Below the pieces are notes generated by a model. That model was not told where the DNA came from, did not search any database, and worked only from the letters and a program-made list of their open reading frames with translations. The position numbers were made by a program, and so were the translations under genes. Of a stretch of 41,775 nt of DNA, positions 8,079-41,775 are shown one piece after another. Each line of letters starts with the position of its first letter. Within the stretch, counting starts at the first letter, position 1. Origin of the DNA: Escherichia phage C130_2; the sequence record MH363708, one strand, 5' to 3'.

Positions 8079-8092
8079 TGGCCCCTTTTTTT
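8069..8092. terminator. Bidirectional intrinsic terminator between the lysis cassette and the convergent Ig-like gene
   Basis: GGGGCCATGATGGCCCC followed by T7 on the plus strand and a U-rich stretch on the minus strand. Confidence 0.6.
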
Positions 8093-10660: not shown

Positions 10661-10710
10661 GGGTTAACTATATATGGTCATTATGCCGGATGTTTAGCAA
10701 AAAGTGCTAT
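10661..10710 (-). promoter_or_regulatory. Promoter-like bipartite element (site C)
   Basis: Minus strand ATAGCACTTTTTGCTAAACA, 18 bp, CATATATAGTTAACCC; the 16-mer CATATATAGTTAACCC is identical to that at site A. Confidence 0.5.
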
Positions 10711-16903: not shown

Positions 16904-17370
16904 TGAACCGGAAAGAAACAGCGCATTGGATCGAATACTGGACGGAATGGGATGAATCACAATTCCTGCCGTCCGAAGATGCAGACGCGGAAACGTGCTT
17001 CCATTGGGTTACTGAGTTTTTCCCTGATCTGCTGATCTTCCACCCCGTCAACGAGTCTGGCGGGGGCCGGAATCCGCAGTATGAGCAAAAGTTAAACGCA
17101 ATGGGCCGCGTCAAAGGGATCATGGATTATATCTTGCTGGAGCCGTTCGGCCCTTACCCCCACGCGGTGATCGAACTCAAGCGCCGGAACAAGAAGAAAA
17201 GCCGATTGAAGCCGGAGCAAAAAGAGCAACTGGAGCGCGCCCGCAGGAAAGGTGCATTTTGTGCTGTTTGTTGGGGGCCGGATGCTTTCAAGGCTTGCAT
17301 TCATGAATTAATGATGCTTAAATCTGCTCATGTTCACGAAACAATGAAGGGCAAAGACAATGCAGACTGA
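16903..17370 (+). CDS. VRR-NUC domain nuclease
   Basis: TGATG overlap with the helicase stop; PD-(D/E)XK-type motif (IMDYILLEP...AVIELKR) as in VRR-NUC proteins. Confidence 0.55.
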   Translation: MNRKETAHWIEYWTEWDESQFLPSEDADAETCFHWVTEFFPDLLIFHPVNESGGGRNPQYEQKLNAMGRVKGIMDYILLEPFGPYPHAVIELKRRNKKKSRLKPEQKEQLERARRKGAFCAVCWGPDAFKACIHELMMLKSAHVHETMKGKDNAD

Positions 17371-18367
17371 AACCGCACAACCTTACTTGCAGGTGTTTGA
17401 ATCGCACGAATTGAGCAACGAGGAATATCACGCGGAAACCGATCATATTTCGGGATCCTCGCTGCATGAACTTCTGATCCGCAGCCCTGCTGGCTGGCGC
17501 TTCAAAAAGGATAAAGAGGCGAAGGAAAAGGCGAAGGAAAGCACCGGCGCGAAGCAAAAGCCGCTGACGTTCGGCACAACGGGCCATACCTGTATGCTTG
17601 AGCCTGATCGCTTCGATCTGGAATATTACCGGATGCCGGATCCCGACGATTACCCCGACGCGCTCACGTCCGTTGCTGCGGTTACAAAGTGGCTTAAGGA
17701 TAAAGGGATCGCAGGTTACTCTGGGAAGAAAATGCCGGAACTTTACCCGCTGGTTGATATGACCGGCGAAGACGTGATGATCTGGCAACGCCTGTGGGAA
17801 CATCACCAGGGGATCGCCGGTGATCGTGAGCAAGTACCGGCAAAGGATTTTGACCGCGTGTTAATGATGCGTGACGTGCTTTTGCAGAATCAGGACTTTC
17901 ACCGCATTATCACCGAAGGCACGCCGGAACTTTCCATTTTCGCTGAGATCGACGGCGTAAAAGTAAAAGTGCGTCTTGACCGCATCACCGCTGACCGTGA
18001 GATCATCGACTATAAAACCACGCAAAGCGCGGAGCCGGAAAAATTCGGGCGGCTGGCTTTTGACAATGGTTATTATTTGAAAATGGCGTTGCAGCATGAC
18101 GTATTTTCTATCGCATACGGCGCACCAAAAGCCGTGACATTATTAGCGCAGGAGAAAGAAGAGCCATTCCTTGCGGAAGCATTCGAATTGACCGAAGAGC
18201 AATTATTATTGGGCCGCATGATGTACCGCACCGCATTACAGATTTATAAGGCGTGCCGTGATGCTAATAAGTGGCCTTCTTATTCTCGCGGTCAACGTAG
18301 AATTAAACTTCCGACGCCTGGCTATATTCAAGCGCGTTACCCTGAATACTTTAAAGCGGAGAAATAA
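17360..18367 (+). CDS. Putative PD-(D/E)XK exonuclease (recombination exonuclease partner of ERF)
   Basis: 335 aa; GAAGG RBS; motif RLDRITADREIIDYKTTQ; immediately upstream of the ERF gene. Confidence 0.5.
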   Translation: MQTETAQPYLQVFESHELSNEEYHAETDHISGSSLHELLIRSPAGWRFKKDKEAKEKAKESTGAKQKPLTFGTTGHTCMLEPDRFDLEYYRMPDPDDYPDALTSVAAVTKWLKDKGIAGYSGKKMPELYPLVDMTGEDVMIWQRLWEHHQGIAGDREQVPAKDFDRVLMMRDVLLQNQDFHRIITEGTPELSIFAEIDGVKVKVRLDRITADREIIDYKTTQSAEPEKFGRLAFDNGYYLKMALQHDVFSIAYGAPKAVTLLAQEKEEPFLAEAFELTEEQLLLGRMMYRTALQIYKACRDANKWPSYSRGQRRIKLPTPGYIQARYPEYFKAEK

Positions 18368-18369
18368 AG

Positions 18370-19092
18370 ATGGAAAACATCATTCAATTTTCGGAATCAC
18401 ATCAAACATTCATGCGGGCATTTTTTGAAGCCCGTAAGAATATCGGCAAGATTACGAAAAAACGTGAGAATGACCATTTAAAATCTAAATATGCCAACCT
18501 CGCTGACTATTTCGACGCCATTGATTCTGCCATTGAAGATCAAGGCTTAATGGTTATTCAGTCGGCGGGCCGCTTCACCGAAAAAGGCGATTTGCCGATG
18601 GAAACGCGGATCGAGCACGTCGAAAGCGGGGAATTTATGGTTGCCGTGATGGAAATTCACGTTGATAAGAAGACCGCGCAGGGCGACGGATCCGCGCAGT
18701 CTTACGCGAAGCGTTACCACATCGGATCGCTGTTCGGTATCGCTACCAGTGATGATGATGGGCACGGCGCGAAGCGCAAGGCGAAGGATTACATTAAAGA
18801 GTTTGACCTGATCACTGATATTAAAGAATTGAAAGACGAGGCCCGCGCCGCTTATCGCTTGCTGACGGGTCAGGAGACGGAGCAAAACCTTATCACAACT
18901 TACGTGACCAAACGCGAAGCCGAAGCCGCCGTGGCAAATCCTGGGTTTATTCCGGCGAAACCGCCAAAACGTGAAGTGCCACGCAAGCAAAGCGATCTGG
19001 CCCAGCCGCCAGCCGGTGTGGCTGACAACTTGCAAAGCGGCGCACAACCTGCGGATAATGCGGGCGACATTAAACCAACGGAGAGTTTTTAA
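18370..19092 (+). CDS. erf: ERF-family single-strand annealing protein
   Basis: N-terminal KSKYANLADYFDAI...GL pattern typical of ERF recombinases; located next to ssb. Confidence 0.6.
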   Translation: MENIIQFSESHQTFMRAFFEARKNIGKITKKRENDHLKSKYANLADYFDAIDSAIEDQGLMVIQSAGRFTEKGDLPMETRIEHVESGEFMVAVMEIHVDKKTAQGDGSAQSYAKRYHIGSLFGIATSDDDGHGAKRKAKDYIKEFDLITDIKELKDEARAAYRLLTGQETEQNLITTYVTKREAEAAVANPGFIPAKPPKREVPRKQSDLAQPPAGVADNLQSGAQPADNAGDIKPTESF

Positions 19093-19095
19093 CAT

Positions 19096-19623
19096 ATGGC
19101 AACGCGCGGAGTTAACAAAGTAATTATCGTCGGCAACCTGGGGCAAGATCCCGAAGTGCGATATATGCCCAGCGGCGGTGCCGTAGCAAACATCACGGTT
19201 GCCACCTCGGAAAGCTGGAACGATAAGGGCACCGGCGAGAAGAAAGAGCAAACGGAATGGCACCGGATCGTTTTGTTCGGCAAGTTGGCTGAGATCGCCG
19301 GTGAATACCTCAAAAAAGGATCGCAGGTCTACATTGAGGGCAAGTTACAAACTCGCAAGTGGACTGACAAAGACGGCGTGGAGCGCTACACAACGGAAGT
19401 TGTTGTGAGCATGGGCGGCACAATGCAAATGCTCGGCGGGAAGAATGCGCCAGCCAGCCAGACTGCGTGGGGGGATCCTCAACAACCTGGCGGCAATGGG
19501 GCAAATCCTCAACGTGGGGGCCGTGGGGCGTCTAACGGCAATCAGCGCGGCAACCGTCCGGCTAATCAGTCGCAAGGCGCTAACGAGCCTCCTGTTGACT
19601 TTGATGATGATATACCGTTTTAA
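19096..19623 (+). CDS. ssb: Single-stranded DNA-binding protein
   Basis: Near-identity over the OB fold to E. coli SSB as recalled ([28 protein letters not shown]...[12 protein letters not shown]...[13 protein letters not shown]), Gly/Gln-rich linker, acidic tip DFDDDIPF. Confidence 0.95.
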
Positions 19624-20690: not shown

Positions 20691-20704
20691 TCCGGGGTGA
20701 AAAA

Positions 20705-20733
20705 ATAAGGGGCCATTGCGGCCCCTTTTTTTA
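20705..20733. terminator. Bidirectional intrinsic terminator between the plus-strand block and the tailspike gene
   Basis: A-run, GGGGCCATTGCGGCCCC, T7. Confidence 0.65.
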
Positions 20734-22983
20734 TGTTGGCGTGCGGAACGACACAACTTTTGCCGCTGCAAGCTGGGTGCCAGCCGGTGTGGCGGTCTGG
20801 ATAGCGTGAGCAATATCGATCCTGATCTCACTGGTTGGATCGTTCACGTTGACACGATAAGGCCCGCGCGTGATCCACGTAGAAAGAGGATTGCCCCCTT
20901 CACCGGCACCAGGGATCACAATTCGGCACCCTGGCGAAAGTGGCGTTTTGTAGATCCAGACCATATCACCATTATTGCCACCTAGCGGAAAGTTTGAAGC
21001 AATCGAGAAGGATCCCACGGTGGTTGCCTTGATTTTAAATTCATCAATGGCGGGAATGTACGCGCCGGAGGCGGTCACAACGAAGATCTTTCCGTCATTT
21101 CGAACAACGAGATCCCCCTCCATGAACTCACGCCCCGTGGGGAATGCGTTACCATCCCAAATGCCCGTGGCGTTCATATCAGCCGGTGACGGAATGATAT
21201 AAGTGTGATTCGATGCGGTCATTTTTGCACCGATCCCGCCGTCAATCCCCTGGCGCGGATATGGGCGCGCAAAGACGTTGGATCCTACGCTTTCGATATG
21301 CGAATAGGCGCAGCGTGACCAACCTTGATCGCCGTAGCCGTTCACGTCAGTTGCGTTAACGTTGACCATTCGCAAGATGGTGCGCCCCGTGGCAAGGTAG
21401 CCGTTTGAAGCTGTGCCGCCCGATGAATCATCACCCACGCAATCAAAGATCCGGCAATGAACATTGCTCATGTTCAATTCAGTTGCCACACCGAAAAGCG
21501 AGAATTTCGCCACGTTCACATTTTCAATGTAATACGTGTTAGTTGCCCCTGCCTTCTCGGTGCCGATACCGGCATAAAAGCGCCCTGTTTTACTGTATAC
21601 GTTGCGGATCGCCATATCGTGACAAGGGCCGCGCGCGCCAACGCCAGCATTTGTGCCCCATTCAAGCATAATAACGCGCACATCCTGGGCAAGCGTGCTG
21701 CCGGTAACTACCGGTTCACCGTAAACCCCATCAATGGAGCAACGGCGGGAGCCGTAGAAAAGCACCGTCGCAACCGTCAGGCCGGAACCGTTCGAAACGT
21801 TCTGGTTGGGGTCGCCGTGGATGTTTTCAACAACGGAATCACGAACCATTTCGAAGTGTACGATCTGACGCACTTTGTTTGCGTAAACGTTACGGATCGT
21901 AATGTTTTTGGCAAAGTTTGCGTCAGGTGTATCAATGCCATAAGGGCTTTGACCTGCAACCCCAATCCCAATACCCCAGTTTGACGGCGTGATCGGGGCT
22001 TGGCCTGTTGAGTCGATGTTATCAAGGAAAATGCCGTCAATCAGGCAACCATTATCATAATGGCGCTGTACTACGTTTAACTCGATCCCGTCGCCGCCCA
22101 TATCGTAAAACGACAAATTGCGGTAGACGCCGGACACAACCGTTGATCCCGTGCCTTGCTGGAGGATGCCGTAAAGGCCATTCCGAAACTCGGAATCGCT
22201 GACCTCAATAGTGCTTCCGTCCACTGGCACACCCTGCATCATGATTGATGCAACCTTGCTGGTTGTCGGCTTACCGTCAAACATGCAATCGCGGATCCTT
22301 ACGTCGCCGCCGTAGTGCATGATTCGCAGGTTGTTAATCACTGCACCTTCGATCAGGGTGTCAGTCAGGCGAAAATCTGCGGTGCCCTTCCAGGTTCCCC
22401 CCATGATGGTGATCCCATTCGGGTTGACCGTGCTTTCAAGCGTGCCAGACCAACCATAAGCGTTGACGATCTTCCCGTTCGCTTTGGCGTAGTCAAACAT
22501 TGCCTGAATCGCCTGTGAAACGCTGGTGTACTCTTCGCGGCCCACAAAATCAAACGGCGTCACAAAGCCTTGCAGTTTGGTTTTTAGCGTGCCTTCTGGC
22601 GTGCCCACGTATTCCCAGCCGGTAGACGATCCGATCACCTTCCACATCTGCGCCGCGTCATATTCCAGAAGGTTATCAAAGGAATATTGCAGCACGTCAT
22701 TGCGATCATAAACGTCCATGCTTGATGCGGTCTGCGTCACAAAGCGCCCAACAATCCCGTTATATTCGGGATAGCCGCTCTGGTTGATTTTGATCGGCTG
22801 CGGCACCGGCACCAGCGTTAGATCCTCATTTTCCAGGTACACTTGCACCTGATTTGCCGGATCCTTCGGGTTGGTGTCGGGCTTGCCAATATAGATATCA
22901 CCGCCGCTGATAGGCGCAAACTTGCCAACCTGAATAAACGGGCTGGACGGCATACGCACGGCAGAAAAAACAATATCGCTCAT
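20731..22983 (-). CDS. Tailspike protein (P22-like N-terminal head-binding domain, beta-helix receptor-binding domain)
   Basis: ATG at 22983 with GAGG RBS; N-terminus GDIYIGKPDTNPKDPANQVQVYLENED...PIKINQSG..YNG matches the P22 tailspike head-binding domain as recalled; rest is Gly/Asn/Val-rich, consistent with a parallel beta-helix. Confidence 0.85.
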   Translation of the reverse strand: MSDIVFSAVRMPSSPFIQVGKFAPISGGDIYIGKPDTNPKDPANQVQVYLENEDLTLVPVPQPIKINQSGYPEYNGIVGRFVTQTASSMDVYDRNDVLQYSFDNLLEYDAAQMWKVIGSSTGWEYVGTPEGTLKTKLQGFVTPFDFVGREEYTSVSQAIQAMFDYAKANGKIVNAYGWSGTLESTVNPNGITIMGGTWKGTADFRLTDTLIEGAVINNLRIMHYGGDVRIRDCMFDGKPTTSKVASIMMQGVPVDGSTIEVSDSEFRNGLYGILQQGTGSTVVSGVYRNLSFYDMGGDGIELNVVQRHYDNGCLIDGIFLDNIDSTGQAPITPSNWGIGIGVAGQSPYGIDTPDANFAKNITIRNVYANKVRQIVHFEMVRDSVVENIHGDPNQNVSNGSGLTVATVLFYGSRRCSIDGVYGEPVVTGSTLAQDVRVIMLEWGTNAGVGARGPCHDMAIRNVYSKTGRFYAGIGTEKAGATNTYYIENVNVAKFSLFGVATELNMSNVHCRIFDCVGDDSSGGTASNGYLATGRTILRMVNVNATDVNGYGDQGWSRCAYSHIESVGSNVFARPYPRQGIDGGIGAKMTASNHTYIIPSPADMNATGIWDGNAFPTGREFMEGDLVVRNDGKIFVVTASGAYIPAIDEFKIKATTVGSFSIASNFPLGGNNGDMVWIYKTPLSPGCRIVIPGAGEGGNPLSTWITRGPYRVNVNDPTSEIRIDIAHAIQTATPAGTQLAAAKVVSFRTPT

Positions 22984-30956: not shown

Positions 30957-31283
30957 TCACTTATCCTTTTTGGCTGCTTTGCTGTTTTCTTTGCGCTGCT
31001 GCTGCGGCTTCTTGGCGGGCACCTCAGACGCGCCAGCATACGGCAACAACGCTTGATAATGGGTAGGCATTGGGCCGGTGCTTTCGTGGCGTTCTGGTGG
31101 CGCTGGCGTCGCTGCTGGGGCTTCTGCCTTCTTGGGCTGCGGCACGTCCGATGGGTGCGCGTACCAATCGCCGGATTTCAACGCTTCTTCAACGTCTGAA
31201 TCATTGAAAACAGCACTTTTTGCAAAGAATTTACCCCAATAAAGTTTATTCTTGCCTTCGGTGTAAAGCATGGTGGTTGACAT
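30957..31283 (-). CDS. Hypothetical protein (108 aa), Lys/Pro-rich C-terminus
   Basis: ATG at 31283 with GAGGA RBS directly downstream of the coat-gene terminator. Confidence 0.45.
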   Translation of the reverse strand: MSTTMLYTEGKNKLYWGKFFAKSAVFNDSDVEEALKSGDWYAHPSDVPQPKKAEAPAATPAPPERHESTGPMPTHYQALLPYAGASEVPAKKPQQQRKENSKAAKKDK

Positions 31284-31353: not shown

Positions 31354-32619
31354 TTACGGCACAACGATCTGATTTGTCGCCACAACTGCCACGTATTCTG
31401 GCACCAGGACGTTTGCACCATAAAGCGTGGTGAAACGACAAGTGGTTTCGCCTTTCAGGTGGTCGAATGCGTAGGACATGATCAGGTATGCGCCCTGCTC
31501 AGTGGTCGCCGTCATTACCTGCGGGCCTTGACCGGTAGGGAATGCCAGCTTGCCATACATCAGCTCAACGGAACCATCAGCCCAAAGCAGGTTAGTTGCG
31601 GTTGCGCGCTTGTTAAGCACGGTGATCGCAGCACCCGAAGCGGCGTTGGCCTGTACGTTGGCGTAAGCACGGGATTTCTGATCCGCGTTGTCCAGCGGCA
31701 GGATCTTCGGAGAGATCGTTACGCTGGTGCCCTGCACGCCCAGCACGCGGAATACCTGCGGCTGGTCGGTGGTTTCCTTACCGATCAGATGCACCATATC
31801 CACGCCCTCAATGGTGAAGGCGTCGCCAACTTGCAGACCTGCGCCGGAAACGGTGATCACGCCCTGACGGTTATCAATCGGCAGGTTTGACACCGGATCC
31901 ATTGCTTCCACGGTGTGCGCTGGCGCTGCTGCCAGGGTCAGATCAGCCGTGGTGCCGGTTGGGATGCGTCCAGACTGATCAACCTTGTAGCTGTCGAAGC
32001 TGGCAACGTCTGGAATCTTCGCCTTTTCGAAAGCGGTCTGGTTAATGCCGGAGGTGTAAGAGCGCCCCGCCAGTTCACCTGCGATGTTTTTATAATCGCG
32101 GGCGTTCAGGAATGCGCGCTTAGTGATGCCCATCGGCACGCCGATCATTGTGAAATTGGCGTCAGCGTCTGCGATACCATCCCAAAGATCACGGCCCAGG
32201 GTGCCGGTTGAGTTATCGCCCACACCAACAAAGTTGGTAGCGCGCAAGGTCGCCTGGGTAACGAGATCCAGATCGATTTGCGCAGCGAGGCGTTGACCTG
32301 CGGCGCGGCCCGCTTCTTTCTTGTGTTCGTCGTCGCGCATTTCGTATGCGTCGAGAGTCCACAAAACGTTTTGAGGCGCTTTATACGCCGCTGGCACCTG
32401 ACGCTGTACCAGTTCAGTTTGCGCAGCGTTGGAAACGTCCAGGCCTTCCACAATATCCATGTGGTAGCGCTGCGGGCGGTGGATCACATCACCGGCGCGT
32501 TGCATGGTCTTATCATCTGGACGGAAGATCTTAGCGTTTTTGGAGACTACGCAAGCGGCTTCGAAGCCTTCCACGTACTCTTCAAACAAGATCTCAAGGT
32601 CTTTCGTTAACTGGTTCAT
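31354..32619 (-). CDS. Major capsid (coat) protein, P22-like
   Basis: 421 aa; AGGAG RBS; C-terminal blocks QKSRAYANV and NLLWADGSVEL resemble P22 gp5 (EQRAYANVN, NVFWADDAIRIV) as recalled; strong terminator downstream. Confidence 0.85.
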   Translation of the reverse strand: MNQLTKDLEILFEEYVEGFEAACVVSKNAKIFRPDDKTMQRAGDVIHRPQRYHMDIVEGLDVSNAAQTELVQRQVPAAYKAPQNVLWTLDAYEMRDDEHKKEAGRAAGQRLAAQIDLDLVTQATLRATNFVGVGDNSTGTLGRDLWDGIADADANFTMIGVPMGITKRAFLNARDYKNIAGELAGRSYTSGINQTAFEKAKIPDVASFDSYKVDQSGRIPTGTTADLTLAAAPAHTVEAMDPVSNLPIDNRQGVITVSGAGLQVGDAFTIEGVDMVHLIGKETTDQPQVFRVLGVQGTSVTISPKILPLDNADQKSRAYANVQANAASGAAITVLNKRATATNLLWADGSVELMYGKLAFPTGQGPQVMTATTEQGAYLIMSYAFDHLKGETTCRFTTLYGANVLVPEYVAVVATNQIVVP

Positions 32620-32657
32620 CTATTTATTGCTCCTGCCGATGATGTTCGGGAATAAGT

Positions 32658-33656
32658 CTATTTCTTACCCGTTCGTTGTTTCAACTGTTTTTTCAGTCGA
32701 ATAACGGCGGTGTAATCGCCTTTTGCGCGGGCGTCGTCAATGGCTTTTTCCAGGCCCAGCACCGTTGAATTGCTGGTGTCGCCCTTCACTTCCGGCGCGG
32801 AACTAACATCCTTGCGGGTCGCAGAAGGTGCGCGCTTCGTGCGCTTGTCAAGATCGGCAATCATATAGCCAAACGCTACCGGATCATTTTCGGCGGTCTG
32901 GATCAACTCCTGCCGCAACTTGGCGTTGCTGCCCAGCGCCATAACCAGCCCCGTTGGGTTTTTGCTGGTCATGAGTACCGCCATACGGATCCCCTGTGGG
33001 ATCTCCGCTGTGGCGATCTGCTCGGCCTTCACGTAGCCTGGTACTTTCTCAACTTTTTTACGCTCTGCCATGTACGCCGTGTTTGCGGTGTTCAGGCGTT
33101 CGCGTAGGGCTTTCTCAGTGGTTTCGCGCTGGCTGTTACGCTGCTGGATCTGGTCGCGGGTTTGTGCCCATTCGTTGATCGCGGCTTCCAGCTTGTCTGA
33201 ATCCCAATCGATCCCCTCGTCGCCTAACTTCGGCATCGGCGGGACTTCTTCGGGCAGGTTCACTGGCGCGGCGGTCTGACTCTTACCGGCTGTCGATTTC
33301 AGCGTTTTAAGCTCGGTGCTGTACTCTTTGAGTTTGCCCCGCAGGTTACGCACCAAATCGGTGTCGCCTTCCTGCTCTTCGAACTCGTCGGCGGCTGGCG
33401 AGGCCAACGGCTGATCGTCAAGGAAAAATTGCAGGGATTCGGGATCTTCTTCCTCTTCCTCTTCGGGATCCTTGCCGGTGTTGCCTTTGTCGTTCCCGTG
33501 CTCGTCGGTTGACTGCTCACGGTTGCGCGTCTGGCTGTCGCGGTTCGTTTCCTGGGTGGAATCGTCGTTGATCTGCTGCTGCATACGCTCGTAAGCGTCT
33601 GCGCCCCCATCTTCCTTGCCGGTCTGGTCGTTTACTGCCTGGTTTCCGAAAGTCAT
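32658..33656 (-). CDS. Scaffolding protein
   Basis: 332 aa, highly charged with predicted coiled coil, directly upstream of the coat gene; AGGAG RBS. Confidence 0.65.
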   Translation of the reverse strand: MTFGNQAVNDQTGKEDGGADAYERMQQQINDDSTQETNRDSQTRNREQSTDEHGNDKGNTGKDPEEEEEEDPESLQFFLDDQPLASPAADEFEEQEGDTDLVRNLRGKLKEYSTELKTLKSTAGKSQTAAPVNLPEEVPPMPKLGDEGIDWDSDKLEAAINEWAQTRDQIQQRNSQRETTEKALRERLNTANTAYMAERKKVEKVPGYVKAEQIATAEIPQGIRMAVLMTSKNPTGLVMALGSNAKLRQELIQTAENDPVAFGYMIADLDKRTKRAPSATRKDVSSAPEVKGDTSNSTVLGLEKAIDDARAKGDYTAVIRLKKQLKQRTGKK

Positions 33657-33726
33657 TAGCTTTTACACTCCTATACGCGATGAATTTTTGTACCCCATCG
33701 GCGGGCAAGGTGAGTGTAAGGCAGTA

Positions 33727-33742
33727 TTTACACCGTTGTAAA
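33727..33742. promoter_or_regulatory. 16-bp palindromic element TTTACACCGTTGTAAA in the scaffold-gene leader
   Basis: Arms TTTACA / TGTAAA; the same element, one central mismatch, occurs at 1267-1282 in the leader of gene 101-1222. Confidence 0.4.
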
Positions 33743-33754
33743 GGTGAATGCACG

Positions 33755-33782
33755 AAAAAATCCACCCAGCAACGGGGCTGGG
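33755..33782 (-). terminator. Intrinsic terminator after gene 33801-34247
   Basis: Minus strand CCCAGC-CCCGTT-GCTGGG followed by TGGATTTTTT. Confidence 0.45.
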
Positions 33783-33800
33783 CAGATTCGGTGGCGGGGT

Positions 33801-34247
33801 TTAGCGGTGGAATACGCCAATAAACTTGCCCAATCGGACGATCTCAGGGCTGATCATCGGGGCGTTGTGTACGGCGTCGGCTGCGGCGGTATTCAGGCGC
33901 GAAAAGTAGCGGATCATGTGCTTCGATACGATCTCAGGGTCGGTGCCCATTTCTTCCGGCACGCAAAACCGCGTTTCGATCATCCGGCGCGGATCGTTAA
34001 CGTCTGCCGCCTGATCTTGCTCAATGGTCACGGTCAACGCCTGATAGGTGATATCCTTCGGCGGCGCTGGGCGCGGGTAAATTACCCCGCTGGCTTCGGC
34101 TTCCTTCCACTTTTTGAGCGCCTCAACGTAAGCGCTGTACTCCTGATCCGACGCTGGCAGGGTGAAGACTGGCCCGCGATCATGATCAAACTGATAGGTG
34201 CGCCCGTTGAGCGCCCCCATTAACATTGTGTAGCGATAAACGGTCAT
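33801..34247 (-). CDS. Hypothetical protein (148 aa), second gene of the insert between portal and scaffold
   Basis: ATG at 34247 with AGGGG RBS. Confidence 0.5.
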   Translation of the reverse strand: MTVYRYTMLMGALNGRTYQFDHDRGPVFTLPASDQEYSAYVEALKKWKEAEASGVIYPRPAPPKDITYQALTVTIEQDQAADVNDPRRMIETRFCVPEEMGTDPEIVSKHMIRYFSRLNTAAADAVHNAPMISPEIVRLGKFIGVFHR

Positions 34248-34256
34248 GGCATCCCC

Positions 34257-34730
34257 TTAGAATGGAATATCAGGATCAAAATCGGCCTTTGGTGCTGCCG
34301 GTACGATCTCCGCGTCCTGCACGTCTTCTGCGCGGCGCGGGTTAACTTCGCGGGCATTGTCTGCCGCTGCCACAAAATCACCCTCCAGCGGGCCTTTGTA
34401 GGTCAGCGCACGAATGCTGGCGATATCGGCAAGGAATTTGGTTTCCTGCACGGTAAAATCAGCGCGCAACTTCTGCAAGCCAGCCTCCATGATCGGCAGA
34501 CTGATCGCCGCTTGCTCTTCGGCGCTCGGCATATCGTAATCAATCGCGCACTCAAACGTTTTTAACAGCACATAGGCTGCGCTTTCGCCACCCTTGCGGA
34601 TATGCTCTTCAACGCTCCAGATCGCGGAGTAGTCGAAGGATTCAACCGATACGGATCCGCGTTTTGGCCCGCCGTTTTTGCCCTCGGCAACGCAAAGGCA
34701 CACGAACAAAGTTTTATTGATAACTGGCAT
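34257..34730 (-). CDS. Protein ending in an SSB-like acidic tip (…ADFDPDIPF), function unknown
   Basis: ATG at 34730 with AGGG RBS; last 8 residues DFDPDIPF match 7 of 8 the SSB tip DFDDDIPF encoded at 19096-19623; the first ~35 residues weakly resemble the first beta-hairpin of SSB. Confidence 0.5.
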   Translation of the reverse strand: MPVINKTLFVCLCVAEGKNGGPKRGSVSVESFDYSAIWSVEEHIRKGGESAAYVLLKTFECAIDYDMPSAEEQAAISLPIMEAGLQKLRADFTVQETKFLADIASIRALTYKGPLEGDFVAAADNAREVNPRRAEDVQDAEIVPAAPKADFDPDIPF

Positions 34731-34774
34731 ATTCTTAACCCTCATGAATTAGTGAAGTGTACGGGCAAAGAATA

Positions 34775-34813
34775 GCCCGCCGAAGCGGGCTTGTCTTTAG
34801 CAAAAAGTGCTAT
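34775..34813 (-). promoter_or_regulatory. Inverted-repeat motif copy (site E) plus UUCG hairpin at the portal / insert junction
   Basis: Minus strand ATAGCACTTTTTGCTAAAG overlapping the portal stop codon, followed by GCCCGC-TTCG-GCGGGC; no TATATAG element here. Confidence 0.4.
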
Positions 34814-37050
34814 TGCTGCGGTTGCTGGGTTGCGGTCTGCTGCGCGGCAGATAACAGGCGATCCGCTTCGCGGTTGTCTTGCTCCTGCTGCTGCTGTCCG
34901 AAGCTCTGCAAAAGCTGGATAACCTGCACCAACTGGTTGTGCTCCACGCCCGCTGCGTCTGCCAGCGTCTTGATCGTCTGCGCCTCGGTCAAGCGTCCAT
35001 CCTGGGCGGCTTTGTTGGCGTCCACGTTCAGTTTCAGCGCTTTCAGTTGCAGATCCAAATGCTTGTTTTGCTCGCCCATCAAGGCTGCATCGCCTTTCTT
35101 GTTCTCTGCGATTGCCAGTTGGGTTGCGGCGTCCGGCTGCTGGTTCTGCTTCGACTGCTCCAGCATGGCTTTTTCTTCGTCCGTTTCCGGCTTGATCACA
35201 CCCTGCAAGATCATCTGATTGCGGGCGTACTCGCGGAAGTCCTGCATTCCCTCGCCGTCCATGTTCATGATGATCAGCGCCGCAACAATCGCAGCATTTG
35301 GGCTGGCGTCGCCCATCGTGGCAAGCAAGTTGGTCAGGTTGCGCACGGTGGCTTGACGGCGCGTTGTGCTCGCCTCGCCCACATCGGCTTCAACCTCATA
35401 GCGCCCCTGCGAAAGATCGTTGAGGCCGATCTCTTCTTTCGTGGTGCGGTCAATGATCTTGCCGTCCATCAATACGAACTCATCCGATCCGTCTTCCTGC
35501 ACGATTCGAATATAATCGGTTGATCCGTACACCTCGCGCGCCATTTCACGCCATACGCGCCCCGCGTGGCGCAGGGATTTTGCGAGGTTGTCCATATACA
35601 GCGCGCCTTGCCCGTCCATGCGGGAGAAAATCGCCTCAACGGTTTCCGTTGCCAGGTTGCTTGGCATGTTCTCAAGCTGGCTGGCCCCTACGATCTGTTG
35701 AATCGTGCCGCCCGTGTATTGCAGGATCGCTGCAACGGCTGGGCTTAGTGGGGTTGTCGGGGTGAAGTTGATCACCTGCCCTGCGGCAATAACATTGCCG
35801 TCAGCGTCGCGCAACGAGTCAACCGGCAGGAATGCTGGTCGATCAGTGTTACGATCCCCCCACGCCTGAGCCAGCGGGCCTGGGATCATGTTGATATCCA
35901 CAATCGGGATATTATCGCCGCCACACTGCGCCGCGTTGTCAGCCAGCATGGACACGATCAGGTTTTCCAGGCGCTGCGCATCAACGGCTAACGTAGCGTG
36001 ACCGGCGATCCGCTCCTTGTTGTCCACGAACGAACGGCGGGCATACACGGGGATCAGCGGAATATAACAGCCTGGCAAGCGCTTTGGCTTCTCGATCCAC
36101 TCGCCACCCGATAGGATCCCGCAGTAAACGCGCGGCTTTTTGACGGTGCGGCGGCTCTGCTCTTCAAATCCGCTTTCGCTCAACTCGTCTTTGATATCCT
36201 CGATCTGCTCTTCGTCGTAAACAACGGTTTGCTGCGTGATCGGGTTCAGGTAGCTAACCACGTCCACATCTTCGATCCGCTTCTCGTAGTAGCGCGCCAG
36301 GTAAACAACGTTCGGCGTTACCCAATCAAACTGCTTGCCGGTGTCGATGGTTTCCAGCGCGGCTGGCGGCAGGGCGTCTGGATATTGATCTTCGAAGCTG
36401 TCACGATCCAGGCTGTAAAGCTCGGTGGCCCACATAGCATCACTGCGATCATACTGCTTGCTGTTCTGGTCAAAGAAGACGCACGACGCCGGATCATAGA
36501 CCGGATAGAAACGAATGTTTCGTTGCACGCTTTCGGGGTTGAATGCGTCTTCCTCTTCGGTGTCCATGCGGAAGCAACCAAAGCCGCCCGTTACCGCATC
36601 ATCAAAAGCGTTGTCGATAGCCTCGCCGCCGCTGGACTCGTTGAAGTCGGCGCGAAACTTGCCATTCATCTTGTCGGCTAACTCGTCGGACGCGGCCCCA
36701 TCCTTCGGACGGAATACCACGTTGATCCGGTTCTGGCGGTAGTCGGTAATGATGCGATCAACTTCGCGCGCCAGCTTGTTCAGCTCAAAGCGCGGGTATT
36801 TTTCAAAGCGTTTATCGTCCATCGCCCAACCGGCAGACGTGCTGCCTTCCCACTGCGCACCAACGACACGAACAAAGCGCAGCACTTCGATCATCTTCTT
36901 GCGCGTAGTCTCTTCATTCGCGTACTGTTGCCCAATGCGCTTGCGGGCACGTTCAAAGCAAGCCTCGTCGCGCTTGGTCTGCTCTGCCGCCTCGCGGTTG
37001 CGCTGGCGCGTTTCGCGTGCCTTCTGCGCTGGGGTTTTGCTATTCGCCAT
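34810..37050 (-). CDS. Portal protein
   Basis: 746 aa, GGGAG RBS, directly downstream of the large terminase; size and position as P22 gp1. Confidence 0.8.
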   Translation of the reverse strand: MANSKTPAQKARETRQRNREAAEQTKRDEACFERARKRIGQQYANEETTRKKMIEVLRFVRVVGAQWEGSTSAGWAMDDKRFEKYPRFELNKLAREVDRIITDYRQNRINVVFRPKDGAASDELADKMNGKFRADFNESSGGEAIDNAFDDAVTGGFGCFRMDTEEEDAFNPESVQRNIRFYPVYDPASCVFFDQNSKQYDRSDAMWATELYSLDRDSFEDQYPDALPPAALETIDTGKQFDWVTPNVVYLARYYEKRIEDVDVVSYLNPITQQTVVYDEEQIEDIKDELSESGFEEQSRRTVKKPRVYCGILSGGEWIEKPKRLPGCYIPLIPVYARRSFVDNKERIAGHATLAVDAQRLENLIVSMLADNAAQCGGDNIPIVDINMIPGPLAQAWGDRNTDRPAFLPVDSLRDADGNVIAAGQVINFTPTTPLSPAVAAILQYTGGTIQQIVGASQLENMPSNLATETVEAIFSRMDGQGALYMDNLAKSLRHAGRVWREMAREVYGSTDYIRIVQEDGSDEFVLMDGKIIDRTTKEEIGLNDLSQGRYEVEADVGEASTTRRQATVRNLTNLLATMGDASPNAAIVAALIIMNMDGEGMQDFREYARNQMILQGVIKPETDEEKAMLEQSKQNQQPDAATQLAIAENKKGDAALMGEQNKHLDLQLKALKLNVDANKAAQDGRLTEAQTIKTLADAAGVEHNQLVQVIQLLQSFGQQQQEQDNREADRLLSAAQQTATQQPQQ

Positions 37051-37098
37051 TTGTCGGCACTCCCTCTGGTTTCATCTGGATATCACCACGGGGCAAAA

Positions 37099-37143
37099 AT
37101 AGCACAAATTGCTAAAACATTTCACGGATTAATGATTATAGTA
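37099..37143 (+). promoter_or_regulatory. Promoter-like bipartite element (site G) driving a plus-strand ORF inside the late region
   Basis: ATAGCACAAATTGCTAAAACA, 18-bp spacer, then TGATTATAGTA (contains the TATAGT hexamer). Confidence 0.45.
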
Positions 37144-37524: not shown

Positions 37525-39147
37525 TTATCGGTTGGACGGCACCCGCAGGTTGCTATAGTCCGGCCTGATCTGCGGCTTCGGCGGCTGCATCGTCATGATC
37601 AGACTATCTGCCATGCCTGGTGAGCGGATCTTCAACTTCTCGCGCATTTGCTTTTTCGGCATCCTGCGGAATTTCCCGTTGTTGTCGTAGATACGGGGGA
37701 TCCTGCATAGCTCGGCGCGTAGCTGGGCCATAAATTCACCGATCCCCTCGCTGTCCAGACTGATCAACTCGTCGGGGTTGCTGTACTCCCCGTGCTCAAT
37801 CGCCCTGTATGTCTTTTCAAAGCGACGGCGTAACAGGTAGATATCCTGCGATCCCCTGTCACCAAACTGATCTTTGTTTTTGCGGGTGTTGCGCCCCTCG
37901 GCCTCCTTGTTTAGCCAGTTGTCCAACTCCACTGGCGCTTCGGGATTCTTCACGCCTTCACCGGCCTTGTATTCGTCCACCAGCACGGCAGTATCTTTGT
38001 AAGCCGTGGTGATATCGCGGCGCAGGGCTGCGCCCAGGCCGGAACCATCCCAAAGGAACATATTCACGCCGTGCGCCTTCGCCCAGGTGATCGCCTTGTC
38101 GGCTGAGTCGTTGGCGTCGCCGTCATACCAGGATTGAGCGAAGCAAACAACGCTGCCGTGCCGCTCAATGTACGCCTTGTTATCTTTCCCCACGTCTGCT
38201 GGGTCAAGTGCTGCGATGCGTGCGCCGGTAGGCTTCCAGCCCATTTTCTTATGCGCATCAATGGCGGCATCGAACCATTCAGCCGGAATGATCGCATCTT
38301 CTACGCTGTCGTTAAATGCGCCGTGCCAGATATGATCGAACAAGGCGCGGGAAAGCGTCTTCCGATCAAACTCCATTTCGGCGCGCAGGGCTTCGGGGAA
38401 CCACGGGTTTTTGTCGTAGTTCACTTTGATAACGAGGTGTAGATCATCCTCGTAGATCCCTTTGGCGTCCAGTTCATGCAGGAACGGCACAATAAAGCGC
38501 TGCGAGAATGGATCCTCGCTGCTGCCTGGGTTGGCGGTAAAGATCATGCGCCCGCCTTCCTCGCGCATGGTCGGGGTCAGCTTGCGCAGACTGTCGGCGC
38601 TGAATGTCTGCGACTCTTCACCCCAAAAGCGGGTAAAGCCAAACGCCGATTTTACGCCGTCAGGGTCACGGGCCATGCCTTTAAAGCGGTGCCCGCCGCC
38701 GTTGGCGTGCCTGATCTCGTCGCGCAGGAACTCCAGCCCCTCGATCCCCTGCTTCTCGGCGCACGCCTTTAACAGCGGGTAAACGGAATCTTTGATCGAT
38801 GATTGGAACTCACGGAGGTTGAGCACCTTTGCTGCGTAGTCGTCAACGTCAGCATTGACGATGCGGCCCACGCTTTCTGACTTGCCGGAACCACGGCCCC
38901 CGATGATAACGATAAATCGTTTTGGGCGGGTCAATACCGGCTCCATGACTTCGGGGATCGTCACGGTGTGCGGCTCGGTTGTTTCCACCCAGCGACGGCC
39001 CACGCGCTTAATATTCTTGACGTGGATCGGCATGAAGTCAGACGGGCGATAGATACCGAAAACCGTTTGGGTGTGCGTTTCGATATGGCGCGCCCTCGCC
39101 TCTGCCTGGTTCGTCCGGCGCATAATGTCTTTGAGGTTACGCCCCAT
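37525..39147 (-). CDS. Terminase large subunit
   Basis: 540 aa; Walker A IIGGRGSGKS near the N-terminus, nuclease-like C-terminal half; GAGGA RBS; immediately upstream of the portal gene. Confidence 0.85.
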   Translation of the reverse strand: MGRNLKDIMRRTNQAEARARHIETHTQTVFGIYRPSDFMPIHVKNIKRVGRRWVETTEPHTVTIPEVMEPVLTRPKRFIVIIGGRGSGKSESVGRIVNADVDDYAAKVLNLREFQSSIKDSVYPLLKACAEKQGIEGLEFLRDEIRHANGGGHRFKGMARDPDGVKSAFGFTRFWGEESQTFSADSLRKLTPTMREEGGRMIFTANPGSSEDPFSQRFIVPFLHELDAKGIYEDDLHLVIKVNYDKNPWFPEALRAEMEFDRKTLSRALFDHIWHGAFNDSVEDAIIPAEWFDAAIDAHKKMGWKPTGARIAALDPADVGKDNKAYIERHGSVVCFAQSWYDGDANDSADKAITWAKAHGVNMFLWDGSGLGAALRRDITTAYKDTAVLVDEYKAGEGVKNPEAPVELDNWLNKEAEGRNTRKNKDQFGDRGSQDIYLLRRRFEKTYRAIEHGEYSNPDELISLDSEGIGEFMAQLRAELCRIPRIYDNNGKFRRMPKKQMREKLKIRSPGMADSLIMTMQPPKPQIRPDYSNLRVPSNR

Positions 39148-39568
39148 TCCTGATCATCCTCTCAATGCCCCATAGTGTGCGCACCACGATCATTTCAATG
39201 GCGTATGCCTGGTATTCGTCATTCTCCAGATCCCATTCCTGCCCGCGTGATCGGAAAATGCTGTTAAGCGTGTGGATCGCCTCATGCGCCACCCGCCCTG
39301 CCACTATGGCTGGATCGGCGTCCATCTTCACACTGAGGACGGCAAGATCCCAATTGTCCGGGGTTTGGTATGGCTGGAAGCTGGCACCGTAAGGGCGTCC
39401 GTCTTCCAGGTCTGGCAGGATATCGCGGATCGCGTCGAAGTCTTCCAGAAGATGCACGACAAGCTGCACCCGCCAGGGGTGCAACTCATAGACGTAAAAG
39501 CCAGCCGCTTCTAACTGCTGGATCGTGTTTTTATTCCGCTTCTGTCGTGGTGTCAGTGTCCGTGCCAT
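39137..39568 (-). CDS. Hypothetical protein with HEAIH (HExxH) motif; possible small terminase by position
   Basis: ATG at 39568 with GGAGAG RBS; overlaps the large-terminase start by 11 nt; no recognisable small-terminase motif. Confidence 0.4.
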   Translation of the reverse strand: MARTLTPRQKRNKNTIQQLEAAGFYVYELHPWRVQLVVHLLEDFDAIRDILPDLEDGRPYGASFQPYQTPDNWDLAVLSVKMDADPAIVAGRVAHEAIHTLNSIFRSRGQEWDLENDEYQAYAIEMIVVRTLWGIERMIRNGA

Positions 39569-40124
39569 GCTCGATCTCTCCGCGTTTCGCTGCTTCTGCC
39601 TCTGCCTGGCGGCGTTCGATCTCGTCCAGACGTTCAAGGATCCCGCTGATTTCCTGCACCTCGGCACCCTTCTTGAAGATATCGATCAGGGCGTGCGCGG
39701 CATCAATCGGGATCTCACCCTTCGCCACTGCCACCATGATCGCATCAATGCGCTGGTTTGGTGTCCAGGTCGGATCAAAGTCAAATTCGAAGTGCGGCAT
39801 GGTTGGGCGCTGATACGGGATCAGGCGGGCCAAAATGTCACGGTACATGGAAGGATCTTTCCAGGCCAACTGCAAGCCGCGCTGAATGAAAAGCTCTTCT
39901 GTGAGCGTCACCTCTTCCATCTGGCCTTCGGCGTTCAGTTGCTTAACCTTGACCGTTTGCAGGGCTTGCAATAGCAGGGTGCGGAATTGTGGCCCGCGCT
40001 TCTGGTTGCGTGGGCTTTTCGGTGGCGGGTTATCCTCGCCAAACTTCTTGCCCTCGCCACGGCCTTTGCCTGGGCCTTGCTGTGGGCCATCGTCGATCAG
40101 GGGGTCTTTGTCGTGGTCGATCAT
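39531..40124 (-). CDS. Hypothetical protein (197 aa); alternative small-terminase candidate
   Basis: Basic Gly/Pro-rich N-terminus, acidic C-terminus; weak RBS; overlaps the downstream gene by 38 nt. Confidence 0.4.
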   Translation of the reverse strand: MIDHDKDPLIDDGPQQGPGKGRGEGKKFGEDNPPPKSPRNQKRGPQFRTLLLQALQTVKVKQLNAEGQMEEVTLTEELFIQRGLQLAWKDPSMYRDILARLIPYQRPTMPHFEFDFDPTWTPNQRIDAIMVAVAKGEIPIDAAHALIDIFKKGAEVQEISGILERLDEIERRQAEAEAAKRGEIEHGTDTDTTTEAE

Positions 40125-40166
40125 TTTCGCTTCATTCTCTCATGATTACATGGTTGAAGCGATTAT

Positions 40167-40180
40167 GGGCCAAAAGGCCC
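40167..40180 (-). other. Hairpin GGGCCAAAAGGCCC
   Basis: Perfect 5-bp stem between genes 40188-40547 and 39531-40124. Confidence 0.3.
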
Positions 40181-40187
40181 AATAAGA

Positions 40188-40547
40188 TCAATCAGAGTGG
40201 GAACTATGACCGGCGCGCGGTTGCGGGGTCAGGTCGATCCAGGCGATTTCCTCCGGCGTTATGTCCACCAGCGGCGCGCCTCGGTGGTTGAATGCGTGCG
40301 GGTCGGCCTTCTTCGACTCATACCCACGAAAGCGGCGGTTTTTGTTGTACTCCCTCGCATACAGCCTGGAACAATCAACGCACTTTCCGCTGCTGGTGAA
40401 GAATCCGGCGCTGTGCCCGTCAATCTGGCAACCCTGCTGGGGGTGGTAGATCTTCGCCTTCAATAGCCGCGCCTCTGCCCTGCTCTTCGGGTGCCGCGTA
40501 GTCAATCCCGCTGGCTTCCTGCTCTGCCAATCGTTCGTATTCCCCAT
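40188..40547 (-). CDS. Hypothetical Cys-containing protein (119 aa); conflicts with 40420-40620
   Basis: ATG at 40547 with AAGGGG upstream; Cys/His cluster (CQIDGH...CVDC). Overlaps the alternative ORF by 128 nt. Confidence 0.3.
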   Translation of the reverse strand: MGNTNDWQSRKPAGLTTRHPKSRAEARLLKAKIYHPQQGCQIDGHSAGFFTSSGKCVDCSRLYAREYNKNRRFRGYESKKADPHAFNHRGAPLVDITPEEIAWIDLTPQPRAGHSSHSD

Positions 40548-40620
40548 CAATGGTGATCCCCTTCTCAATGCGTAGGGGGCCGGACACGGCCCCGCATACT
40601 TGATAAGCGATGCCGCCCAT
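40420..40620 (-). CDS. Hypothetical acidic protein (66 aa); conflicts with 40188-40547
   Basis: ATG at 40620 forms a TGATG overlap with the upstream gene stop (translational coupling). Confidence 0.3.
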   Translation of the reverse strand: MGGIAYQVCGAVSGPLRIEKGITIDGEYERLAEQEASGIDYAAPEEQGRGAAIEGEDLPPPAGLPD

Positions 40621-40865
40621 CAGCCTAACCAATCCACGGGGCGCACGTCACACAACAACCGTGAGTTTTCAACGTTCACGCCGTCTGCCGATCCGCGCAC
40701 CTGGATAAAGATCCGATGGTACGCCTTATCGCCGTTAAGGCTGGGCTTTATGTCGTAGCCGGTTACGCGGTGCGCTACCCAGCGATCAACGCTGGAAAGG
40801 TGGATCAGCACGTCACAACCCACGGGCGGCAACTGCTCACCATCCCAAATCTGTTTCATGCCCAT
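40620..40865 (-). CDS. Hypothetical protein (81 aa)
   Basis: ATG at 40865 with AGGAG RBS. Confidence 0.5.
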   Translation of the reverse strand: MGMKQIWDGEQLPPVGCDVLIHLSSVDRWVAHRVTGYDIKPSLNGDKAYHRIFIQVRGSADGVNVENSRLLCDVRPVDWLG

Positions 40866-40870
40866 TGTGA

Positions 40871-41137
40871 TCAGTCTCCTAACAAGCGGCGGCGCATTTC
40901 GGCAAGGGCTTGCACCGCCTGGGCAACGTCAGCCCGTGACGCAAGCCCGCTGATAATCTGGAAGGCTTCGGGGTGATTGATCGCCCACTCAAGCTGGCGC
41001 GCCTCCAGGCTGGAAAGCTCGGAGATCCGCCCGTCTGCCGTCTTCACGATCAGCAATGCCCGCGAATCATCCCAAATGGCGCGGGTGCGCCCCTCGTCGT
41101 TCTCAAGCTCGGTGGCTAGTGTCGTGCCCTTGCTCAT
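40871..41137 (-). CDS. Hypothetical protein (88 aa)
   Basis: ATG at 41137 with GGGG RBS, 2 nt after the upstream stop. Confidence 0.5.
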   Translation of the reverse strand: MSKGTTLATELENDEGRTRAIWDDSRALLIVKTADGRISELSSLEARQLEWAINHPEAFQIISGLASRADVAQAVQALAEMRRRLLGD

Positions 41138-41139
41138 GA

Positions 41140-41496
41140 TTAACGCCCCTGTGCTGCGTTGCCAACGCTTCTGACGGCTTCCGCATAGCTGCGTTTGGCG
41201 ATTGCCTCGGCCTCTTTGCGGGAGTACCCACGGCGCATAAGTGACGCCGTACCTTTGGCGATCAGACGCGCCTTTTTCTCTTTGCGTGTCTCGCCCTCTT
41301 TGCGGTCTGGCACGTCAGGCGGTGTGCCCATCATGGCACGCTGCATGGCTGCGCGTGGCTTCACAATACCGGCGTTGATCGCCTCCTGCCGGATGTTATC
41401 GGCGCGCATCTTCTGGATCGGCTCTGGTATCACTTCGGCTTTTTGTTTCGAACTGATCACCATGTTAACCAATGCGCTGATAATCCCTCGTTTCAT
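41140..41496 (-). CDS. Hypothetical basic protein (118 aa), first gene after the terminator hairpins
   Basis: ATG at 41496 preceded by TGAGG 9 nt upstream; the track ORF extends further but this is the first ATG with an RBS. The window begins at the reverse complement of its first two codons (ATGAAA). Confidence 0.5.
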   Translation of the reverse strand: MKRGIISALVNMVISSKQKAEVIPEPIQKMRADNIRQEAINAGIVKPRAAMQRAMMGTPPDVPDRKEGETRKEKKARLIAKGTASLMRRGYSRKEAEAIAKRSYAEAVRSVGNAAQGR

Positions 41497-41775
41497 CGTC
41501 TTTGCCTCATTGTTTCGTGAATGTGTGGTGAGCGTACAACAAAGGGGCCGCAGCCGCAAGCCCCTTGATATCCTCCCAGCGAGGCTGGGCTTAAATTGCC
41601 CTGTCGCTGCTCTTCGCCAGGTGTCCACCTTTGCCGATCCAGGCGCTGGCGCGCTGGTATTCGCTGGCGATCAACTCGTCGGTAACATACAGCCCGCCCC
41701 GATGATATGCCGCGTTAAACTCCGGCGATTCGTTGTAACCACGGCTCATAGCGTCTGCTATGGCTTCCAGCGCCT
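41491..41775. repeat. Terminal exact repeat, right copy (identical to 1-285)
   Basis: Same 285 bp as the window start; duplicates the 3' end of the 101-1222 gene, its terminator hairpins and the first two codons of the 41140-41496 gene. Confidence 0.9.

Follow-up and report, generated by a model that had tools for sequence, protein, structure and literature searches.

The last six to nine residues of SSB, the protein that binds single-stranded DNA, act as a hub for more than 12 genome-maintenance enzymes and are a target of antibacterial inhibitors; among the proteins that dock on its C-terminal hexapeptide (SSB-Ct) are primase, Pol III chi, PriA and exonuclease I (PMC5872125). The tips of phage SSBs recruit partners or annealases, as exemplified by the SSB tail of HK620 with Sak4 (PMC5928155), and the acidic, Phe-terminated tail of gp2.5, the SSB of phage T7, contacts DNA polymerase (PMC12339929). 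A literature search on phage SSB-tip mimics retrieved no description of a natural non-SSB protein with an SSB-Ct peptide. Here, a candidate for such a protein is described: open reading frame 1 (ORF1) of Escherichia phage C130_2 (MH363708), which is encoded on the minus strand between the genes for a P22-type portal and the scaffold. The window is the whole stretch of 41,775 nt, and coordinates refer to it unless another record or locus is named.

ORF1 ends in ...AAPKADFDPDIPF. Judged from its sequence, it would be a case of motif mimicry of a host hub by an orphan protein family. The reading that we tentatively favour, and hold to be quite possible, is that ORF1 docks on SSB-partner proteins by means of an SSB-tip mimic and would be their decoy or adaptor. 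For the genes between portal and scaffold, neither proteomics nor a function is given in the literature on these phages.

Results

The tip of ORF1 and its comparison with SSB

In a preliminary description of the locus, made from the DNA letters, ORF1 was said to end in PKADFDPDIPF, near-identical to the tip of the phage SSB. The sequence bears this out, as does a six-frame translation of the window, in which IPF directly before a stop codon was found in two frames only, those of ORF1 and SSB. The SSBs of all nine related genomes (9/9) end in DFDDDIPF, the exact tip of E. coli SSB. This uniformity suggests that the phages depend on proteins reading that tip; it also means that the SSB tips offer no variation with which that of the ORF1 tip could be compared.

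Beyond the tip, ORF1 and SSB have no detectable homology. When the ORF1 family was aligned with the phage SSB in hhalign, the last eight residues alone aligned, with a probability of 1.6%, and a search of ORF1 against Pfam gave no SSB match. A faint likeness of the ORF1 N-terminus to the first SSB hairpin, as described earlier, was undetectable. The accompanying statement that the remainder of the protein does not resemble an OB fold was correct: the structural model consists of three strands and one long helix, with no OB barrel. It had further been suggested that ORF1 is a highly degenerate SSB paralog, in which case it might still bind single-stranded DNA (ssDNA). The shared tip and the beta-rich N-terminus are all that can be cited for this idea. 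Profile comparison, Pfam and the model are all against it and refute it as far as sequence and fold prediction go, and the acidic composition of the protein (pI 4.56 overall, 5.2 for residues 1-68) speaks against ssDNA binding; we regard such a paralog as scarcely credible. Compared with the SSB family (PF00436), ORF1 has a disordered linker with an acidic Pro-Phe-COOH tip but no OB fold.

We considered whether the tip was acquired lately by gene conversion from that of the phage SSB, and rejected this idea. The two DNA segments are identical at 22 of 30 nt; of their seven shared sense codons, however, four show differences at synonymous sites only. Because the tip DNA of ORF1 differs from that of SSB at synonymous sites, it is not a recent copy.

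Conservation and loss of the tip

In a set of 5.8 billion proteins, the homologs of ORF1 fell into 29 clusters when grouped at 90% identity. At the 50% identity level, an exhaustive search of representatives yielded five for ORF1 among 1.8 billion, and the family is therefore tiny. P-F-COOH is kept in 28 of the 29 cluster representatives, down to 23-27% identity. Tipped members carry I, V or F at position -2, with the exception of P0039, which has S, and at least one Asp or Glu is present in the last eight residues of all members. The tips include KPDLDIPF (STP9), DKPLDIPF (sortkaff, KMB41), DIDKDGIPF (P0009, P0043), DDKFNVPF (Kc166B), DPDLDIPF (Skarpretter, 31% identical), DDALDVPF (P0037), DDEEDFPF (P0044), DADFDDIPF (P0045, 25% identical), ATFDDFPF (P0046, P0047) and FKDSPF (P0039). 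Tip codons vary synonymously between members (CCA/CCG, TTC/TTT, GAT/GAC; Ile/Val as ATT/ATA/GTC/GTT), and the spacer that separates the tip from a second acidic motif, DAEIV, is variable in length and sequence and sometimes basic or neutral. Hence, the constraint acts on the peptide. Judged from these alignments, purifying selection acts on the protein sequence of the ORF1 tip, which exceeds what chance would produce. The tip displays three traits of an SSB-Ct-type motif: C-terminal Pro-Phe, a hydrophobic residue at position -2 with acidic residues, and a peptide that is conserved while the linker drifts. In the model it lies at a disordered end (pLDDT, the predicted local distance difference test score, below 50), as expected of a docking peptide.

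Two rival explanations were weighed. The C-terminus might be kept by a constraint at the nucleotide level, either translational coupling to ORF2 or its ribosome-binding site, or a recombination joint, and not for the function of the peptide. The ORF1 stop codon does overlap the Shine-Dalgarno sequence of ORF2, and DNA similarity between alleles is limited to the block made up of tail, tip and ORF2 start. This explanation is very unlikely in view of the synonymous variation of tip codons with retention of the peptide, and of loci L026 and L032, where the tip is kept although the downstream gene differs and sits 45 nt away.

The second concerns charge. The tails of SSB and T7 gp2.5 bind their own DNA-binding groove in cis. 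Contact of the acidic tail with the protein's own DNA-binding site is reported for SSB (PMC5928155) and for T7 gp2.5 (PMC10359462). ORF1 might act as an anti-SSB or ssDNA mimic, its acidic tail and tip binding the DNA groove of the SSB OB fold and modulating SSB loading late in infection. With 11 acidic residues among 45 and a pI of 4.05, the ORF1 tail has a suitable composition. Selection, however, centres on the terminal hydrophobic-Pro-Phe and not on charge, and the changeable, at times basic or neutral spacer fits the same picture, which is typical of pocket docking rather than of polyanion mimicry. We consider ssDNA mimicry improbable.

The tip has been lost in the Murrayvirus EC2 lineage, represented by IME_EC2 (China), sortsyn (Denmark) and a metagenomic cluster, P0010, where the protein ends in ...DAEIV. 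Tip and first codons of the next gene are missing through a cleanly bounded deletion of about 45 nt, which fuses stop and start as ATGA (L011, sortsyn, 3390-3420; L010, IME_EC2, 3420; compare L002, 6430-6480). Homologs without the motif had been named in the preliminary description as a finding that would refute tip mimicry. They occur in this one lineage, which refutes no more than that the tip is essential, and 28 clusters keep the tip.

A second non-SSB family with an SSB-like tip, D-x-[DE]-L-P-F, was noted in Skarpretter (...PDYDLPF; L012, MK105855, 35151-35696, plus strand, 181 residues) and Kc166B (...KDSELPF; L013, MW258711, 1936-2460, plus strand, 174 residues). The two proteins are 76% identical in tblastn over the first ~150 residues, and their genes are located in the early region, divergent beside a large AAA ATPase gene. 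The family has no homolog in the window and was present in two records only of the phage collection.

Architecture and family of ORF1

The predicted protein consists of a small beta domain, a long amphipathic helix and a tail of 45 residues that is predicted to be disordered (pLDDT below 50 over residues 113-157). The helix is the best-conserved block; residues A74, E82, L85, R89, A90, E96, I103 and A104 are invariant in remote homologs. In the best heptad registers, nine of 12-13 a/d positions are hydrophobic, a pattern from which the helix probably oligomerises as a coiled coil. The tail holds three short conserved motifs, LTYKGPLEGDFVAAAD, DAEIV and the tip.

No significant family was found for ORF1 or ORF2 in Pfam, NCBIfam, PADLOC or PHROGs, and ORF1 matched neither PADLOC entries nor known anti-defence families. 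The ORF1 profile retrieved from PDB sequences a chance nanobody match only (E 2.3), and a Foldseek search of BFVD gave the Skarpretter homolog as the only significant match. According to these searches, ORF1 constitutes an orphan family. Weak likenesses were also noted: over the beta domain and the start of the helix, five of 21 ORF1-family members matched phrog_2479 (~107 residues, function unknown; best E 0.0044 for P0039 residues 3-90), to which the window ORF1 itself gave no match, and uncharacterised phage proteins of 93-104 residues in BFVD were recovered by Foldseek with probabilities of 0.99-1.0 and an E value of 0.013. Both groups differ from ORF1 in being too short for tail and tip, and their kinship to it is not established.

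ORF1 in an accessory hotspot

According to the preliminary description, the portal gene of P22-like phages is directly followed by the scaffold gene, and two genes are inserted between them here. The direct junction exists in Sf101 (Lederbergvirus, a temperate P22-like phage) and in Kosakonia phage Kc259, and the two genes, ORF1 and ORF2, were confirmed on the minus strand. The term insert is less apt than mosaic accessory hotspot, because the ORF2 family is constant, and ORF1 optional and exchangeable. In the phages compared, the gap contains zero to four genes from five families. It is empty in Kc259 and Sf101. The ORF2 family is its constant member, always adjoining the scaffold gene, and occurs also in sister phages that have no ORF1 (Sortsne, Lumpael, Kc237 and ST231). 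It comes in a long form (~148 residues) and a short form (89-137 residues) that are homologous (hhalign probability 94.8%, E 5.5e-8); the ORF2 model (pLDDT 84) matched no known fold.

ORF1 is carried by sortkaff and IME279 (Sortsnevirus), by KMB41, sortsyn and IME_EC2 (Murrayvirus), by Skarpretter and Kc166B, and by the phage of record OR754315. All are podoviruses of high GC content with a lytic lifestyle and a P22-type head. Searches of 5,426 complete E. coli genomes and of plasmids yielded neither ORF1 nor ORF2, which are therefore not prophage or plasmid genes.

The ancestry of ORF1 is not that of its neighbours. In the metagenomic contig at locus L030, TerL, portal, scaffold and coat are 97-100% identical to those of the window (portal 99%), while ORF1 is of the Skarpretter-type allele and only 25% identical. 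Conversely, the portal of sortkaff is 59% identical to that of the window and its ORF1 76%. The phylogeny of ORF1 is therefore decoupled from that of the flanking genes. At the DNA level, the window and L030 are 96% identical up to 34739, nine bases before the ORF1 start, and have no similarity across the ORF1 body. Similarity resumes at 34286, exactly with the tip-coding segment, continues at 83% through ORF2 and returns to 96% after the ORF2 stop. Thus, the body of ORF1 was swapped as a module and the tip was retained. Variable presence at a fixed position and horizontal exchange independent of the flanks, both seen here, are marks of an accessory cassette.

These data bear on the possibility that ORF1 is a minor procapsid, internal virion or assembly protein that co-assembles via portal or scaffold and is perhaps ejected with the DNA. 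Its C-terminal Pro-Phe would then dock on a phage structural protein or act in the next host, and the likeness to the SSB tip would be secondary. In addition to the position of the gene, to which we return below, the helix of one family member gave a weak match to a PHROG for head scaffolding (E 6e-4), and two other gap genes of Kc237 are annotated as "internal virion protein", an annotation that is unverified. The scaffolding match, however, is confined to a helical stretch of biased composition and loses significance on correction for 21 queries. ORF1 is missing in close relatives that share the head genes, and its alleles are swapped between phages with 97-99% identical portal, scaffold and coat. 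Moreover, the remote homologs P0046 (L032) and P0039 (L029) are located among small non-structural genes, with no portal neighbour, and keep the tip. There is no similarity to P22 ejection proteins, and no Pfam or PHROG match to the gp7, gp20 and gp16 families; ejection-type genes of L007 and L030 are located downstream of tail accessory genes. Absence in relatives, allele swaps and homologs outside the head module argue against an obligatory role in head assembly, and we judge a virion function to be unlikely. The evidence favours an accessory, host- or conflict-facing function, with a constant tip and a variable N-terminal domain.

Several further observations were made on this group of loci. 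The L030 sequence is ENA ERZ27333684, contig k113_170556; positions 7001-8154 carry its ORF1, with the tip DADFDDIPF, and an extra 89-residue gene (7885-8154) between ORF2 and scaffold, which on informal inspection looked unrelated in sequence to the 89-residue short form of the ORF2 family. Another gap family of ~150-185 residues, which precedes ORF1 in some phages (L004 3120-3590, L026 5473-5940, L009 4395-4949), contains ...AEAEIVGFRE..., resembling DAEIV; the likeness may be due to chance, or both families may use the short motif to bind a common partner. A gene for an Acb2/Tad1 hairpin domain (PF24729, the anti-CBASS/anti-Thoeris sponge family) occurs at L026 334-630 and L027 342-641. It is located upstream of the terminase genes, in the phage from which the remote ORF1 homolog P0037 derives. 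In this group, genes for anti-defence are therefore embedded beside the structural block. The small ORFs of the window at 39137-41628 had no Pfam match.

The closest public record, OR754315.1 (L001/L017), is entitled "Stutzerimonas phage vB_SstS_STP9" and is marked UNVERIFIED_ORG and unannotated. It is collinear with the window and 92% identical across 4.5 kb (32601-37100), and its SSB tip is of the E. coli type. The phage belongs to this enterobacterial group, and the host label is doubtful.

A possible mechanism and the evidence that bears on it

ORF1 is an optional, horizontally exchangeable accessory protein in a clade of P22-headed podoviruses that are lytic on enterobacteria (Sortsnevirus, Murrayvirus, Skarprettervirus and relatives). 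In the reading that we favour, its free tip would insert into the sites, each composed of a hydrophobic pocket and a basic ridge, that read the tip of host or phage SSB. Candidate targets are (i) in the host, exonuclease I, RecQ, PriA, Pol III chi and primase, and (ii) in the phage, the ERF annealase, an exonuclease and a helicase. We infer binding to SSB partners, and the effect could go in either of two directions. As a decoy, ORF1 would titrate partners off SSB-coated DNA; as an adaptor, it would tether one partner to whatever its N-terminal domain or ORF2 binds. The phage proteins named belong to a replication and recombination module (14846-19623 and 2125-3666) with an SF2 helicase (14846-16903), a VRR-NUC nuclease, a PD-(D/E)XK exonuclease (DUF3799; 17360-18367), an ERF annealase (18370-19092), SSB, an AAA_25 protein (2125-3666) and a primase-like zinc-ribbon protein. 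A scan of the larger ORFs of the window revealed no recognisable DNA polymerase.

Tip mimicry had been raised in the preliminary description as one of two options. It is strengthened by the conservation of the tip, by its position on a disordered tail and by the homologs outside the head module, and we regard it as plausible. A more far-reaching version appears rather doubtful to us: ORF1 might be a multivalent, oligomeric decoy of the SSB hub. During infection it would titrate or redirect SSB-interacting enzymes of the host, or else a nuclease or helicase of a defence system that has an SSB-tip pocket. The exchanged N-terminal domain would set its specificity, and ORF1 would be part of a wider practice of placing SSB tips on non-SSB proteins.

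Some observations weigh against docking on SSB partners. The ORF1 tip is less acidic than that of SSB: the last six residues of many alleles include no more than one or two Asp, and Gly or Asn occupies position -3 in some. The helix, LTYKGPLEGDFVAAAD and DAEIV are conserved at least as well as the tip, and docking by the tip does not explain them. In most family members the gene is located between a P22-type portal and the scaffold, as a virion protein might be expected to be. Finally, the tipless phages IME_EC2 and sortsyn were isolated independently as E. coli plaque-formers; the EC2 lineage being viable, growth on laboratory hosts does not require the tip.

Locus organisation and transcription signals

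On the minus strand, the gene order is TerL, portal, ORF1, ORF2, scaffold, coat and gp4-/gp10-like genes (Table 1). All ORF1 homologs share a Met-Pro start at a position equivalent to the ATG at 34730.

The cassette had been described as bracketed by an inverted-repeat motif and a UUCG hairpin upstream and by a terminator downstream; terminator scan and RNA folding agree with this. The folding energy of the hairpin is -20.9 kcal/mol (z -3.1) and that of the terminator -21.2 kcal/mol (z -3.7), with none of 200 shuffles equally stable as the latter. The motif TAGCACTTTTTGCTA has an exact match after the portal gene and a copy with three mismatches at 10689-10709, the expectation from shuffling being 0. 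Its form AAATAGCACTTTTTGCTAA occurs in about seven intergenic copies (3758-3776, 4734-4752, 31208-31226, 37097-37115, 1327-1345, 10692-10710 and 34795-34813; repeat families D4/D13). Motif and hairpin after the portal are 94% conserved in phage sortregn, which lacks ORF1, against 61% identity of the portal proteins. The palindromic motif is probably a phage-specific promoter or operator element. A consensus scan before ORF1 found no sigma-70-type promoter, and ORF1 is presumably expressed late.

Two early-region copies of AAATAGCACTTTTTGCTAA have a TATATA-like element ~30 nt downstream. Elsewhere in the window, a GGGGCC-N-GGCCCC hairpin followed by T7 is present in two 82%-identical copies (8054-8098 and 20694-20738), both at switches of the coding strand in the ORF list (~8.09 kb and ~20.7 kb); these hairpins are probably bidirectional terminators. 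Positions 1-285 and 41491-41775 form an exact direct repeat of 285 nt, and the window is therefore a complete genome of ~41,490 bp. The repeat reflects assembly overlap, due either to circular assembly or to terminal redundancy. An Rfam scan of the whole window found no family.

Table 1. Features of the ORF1 locus and the SSB gene in the window of phage C130_2.
Feature	Coordinates	Strand	Remarks
TerL (large terminase)	37525-39147	-	
P22-type portal	34810-37050	-	PF16510, E 8e-155
Palindromic intergenic motif	34792-34812	-	TAGCACTTTTTGCTA(AAGACA); directly 3' of portal stop
GC-rich UUCG hairpin	34774-34791	-	AGCCCGC-UUCG-GCGGGCU, then AUUCUUUG; terminator scan, terminator-like
Shine-Dalgarno sequence of ORF1	34739-34743	-	GAGGG, 8 nt before the ATG at 34730; read from sequence
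ORF1	34257-34730	-	157 residues; from ORF list and sequence
ORF1, small beta domain	34527-34730	-	Residues 1-68 (strands 3-15, 27-30, 52-64); variable, exchangeable part
ORF1, long amphipathic helix	34401-34523	-	Residues 70-110 (LPIMEAGLQKLRADF..E..LADIASI); from model, best-conserved block
ORF1, linear motif LTYKGPLEGDFVAAAD	34359-34406	-	Residues 109-124; nearly invariant columns, pLDDT <50
ORF1, acidic motif DAEIV	34302-34316	-	Residues 139-143; in both allele types and the tipless lineage
ORF1, tip DFDPDIPF	34260-34283	-	Residues 150-157; like the SSB C-terminal tip
ORF2	33801-34247	-	148 residues; Shine-Dalgarno AAGGGGA overlaps ORF1 stop
Intrinsic terminator	33755-33789	-	13-bp stem, 6-nt loop, U6; downstream of ORF2
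Scaffold	32658-33656	-	
P22-type coat	31354-32619	-	PF11651; gp4- and gp10-like genes come next
Phage SSB (OB fold)	19096-19623	+	PF00436, E 1.7e-40; ends in DFDDDIPF

Discussion

Should ORF1 bind SSB partners, phages would have evolved a competitor or adaptor for the SSB hub. ORF1 could then reveal which SSB partner matters to a lytic phage with no recognisable polymerase gene among the ORFs scanned, and provide a ready-made tool to perturb the SSB interactome. The system is tractable. The carriers Skarpretter, sortkaff and KMB41 and the tipless sortsyn grow on E. coli K-12, two ORF1 allele types are available in otherwise near-identical phages, and sortsyn is a natural tipless control.

The nearest likeness in sequence is to SSB-Ct itself (DDDIPF). 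ORF1 also ends in acidic and hydrophobic residues followed by Pro-Phe-COOH, on a tail that is predicted to be disordered and acidic, and as a probable oligomer it would show several tips. The differences are equally clear. ORF1 has no OB fold and no detectable homology to SSB beyond the last eight residues; it is acidic throughout; most of its alleles have fewer acidic residues in the tip; and SSB is a core gene, whereas ORF1 is optional and exchangeable.

In its mosaic presence, its sharp-jointed allele replacement and its own terminator, ORF1 resembles moron and anti-defence cassettes. Being small and acidic, with an orphan fold and a host-like docking motif, it is also reminiscent of anti-defence proteins and of viral linear-motif mimicry. 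It differs from moron and anti-defence genes in its late placement in the structural block, which is less usual for genes of host takeover.

In logic, the closest analogue is phage T7. The tail of the T7 gp4 helicase-primase is reportedly similar to that of gp2.5 and contacts the same basic patches of the polymerase, according to work from the Richardson laboratory. There, too, a non-SSB protein has an SSB-like acidic tail with Phe at its end in a phage that also encodes an SSB, which implies shared or competing docking sites. Unlike ORF1, gp4 belongs to the core enzymes of the replisome and its partner is known; ORF1 is an accessory protein that lacks any enzymatic domain and is usually encoded in the structural block. 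Also, the tip of ORF1 copies the host-type DIPF and not a phage-specific motif.

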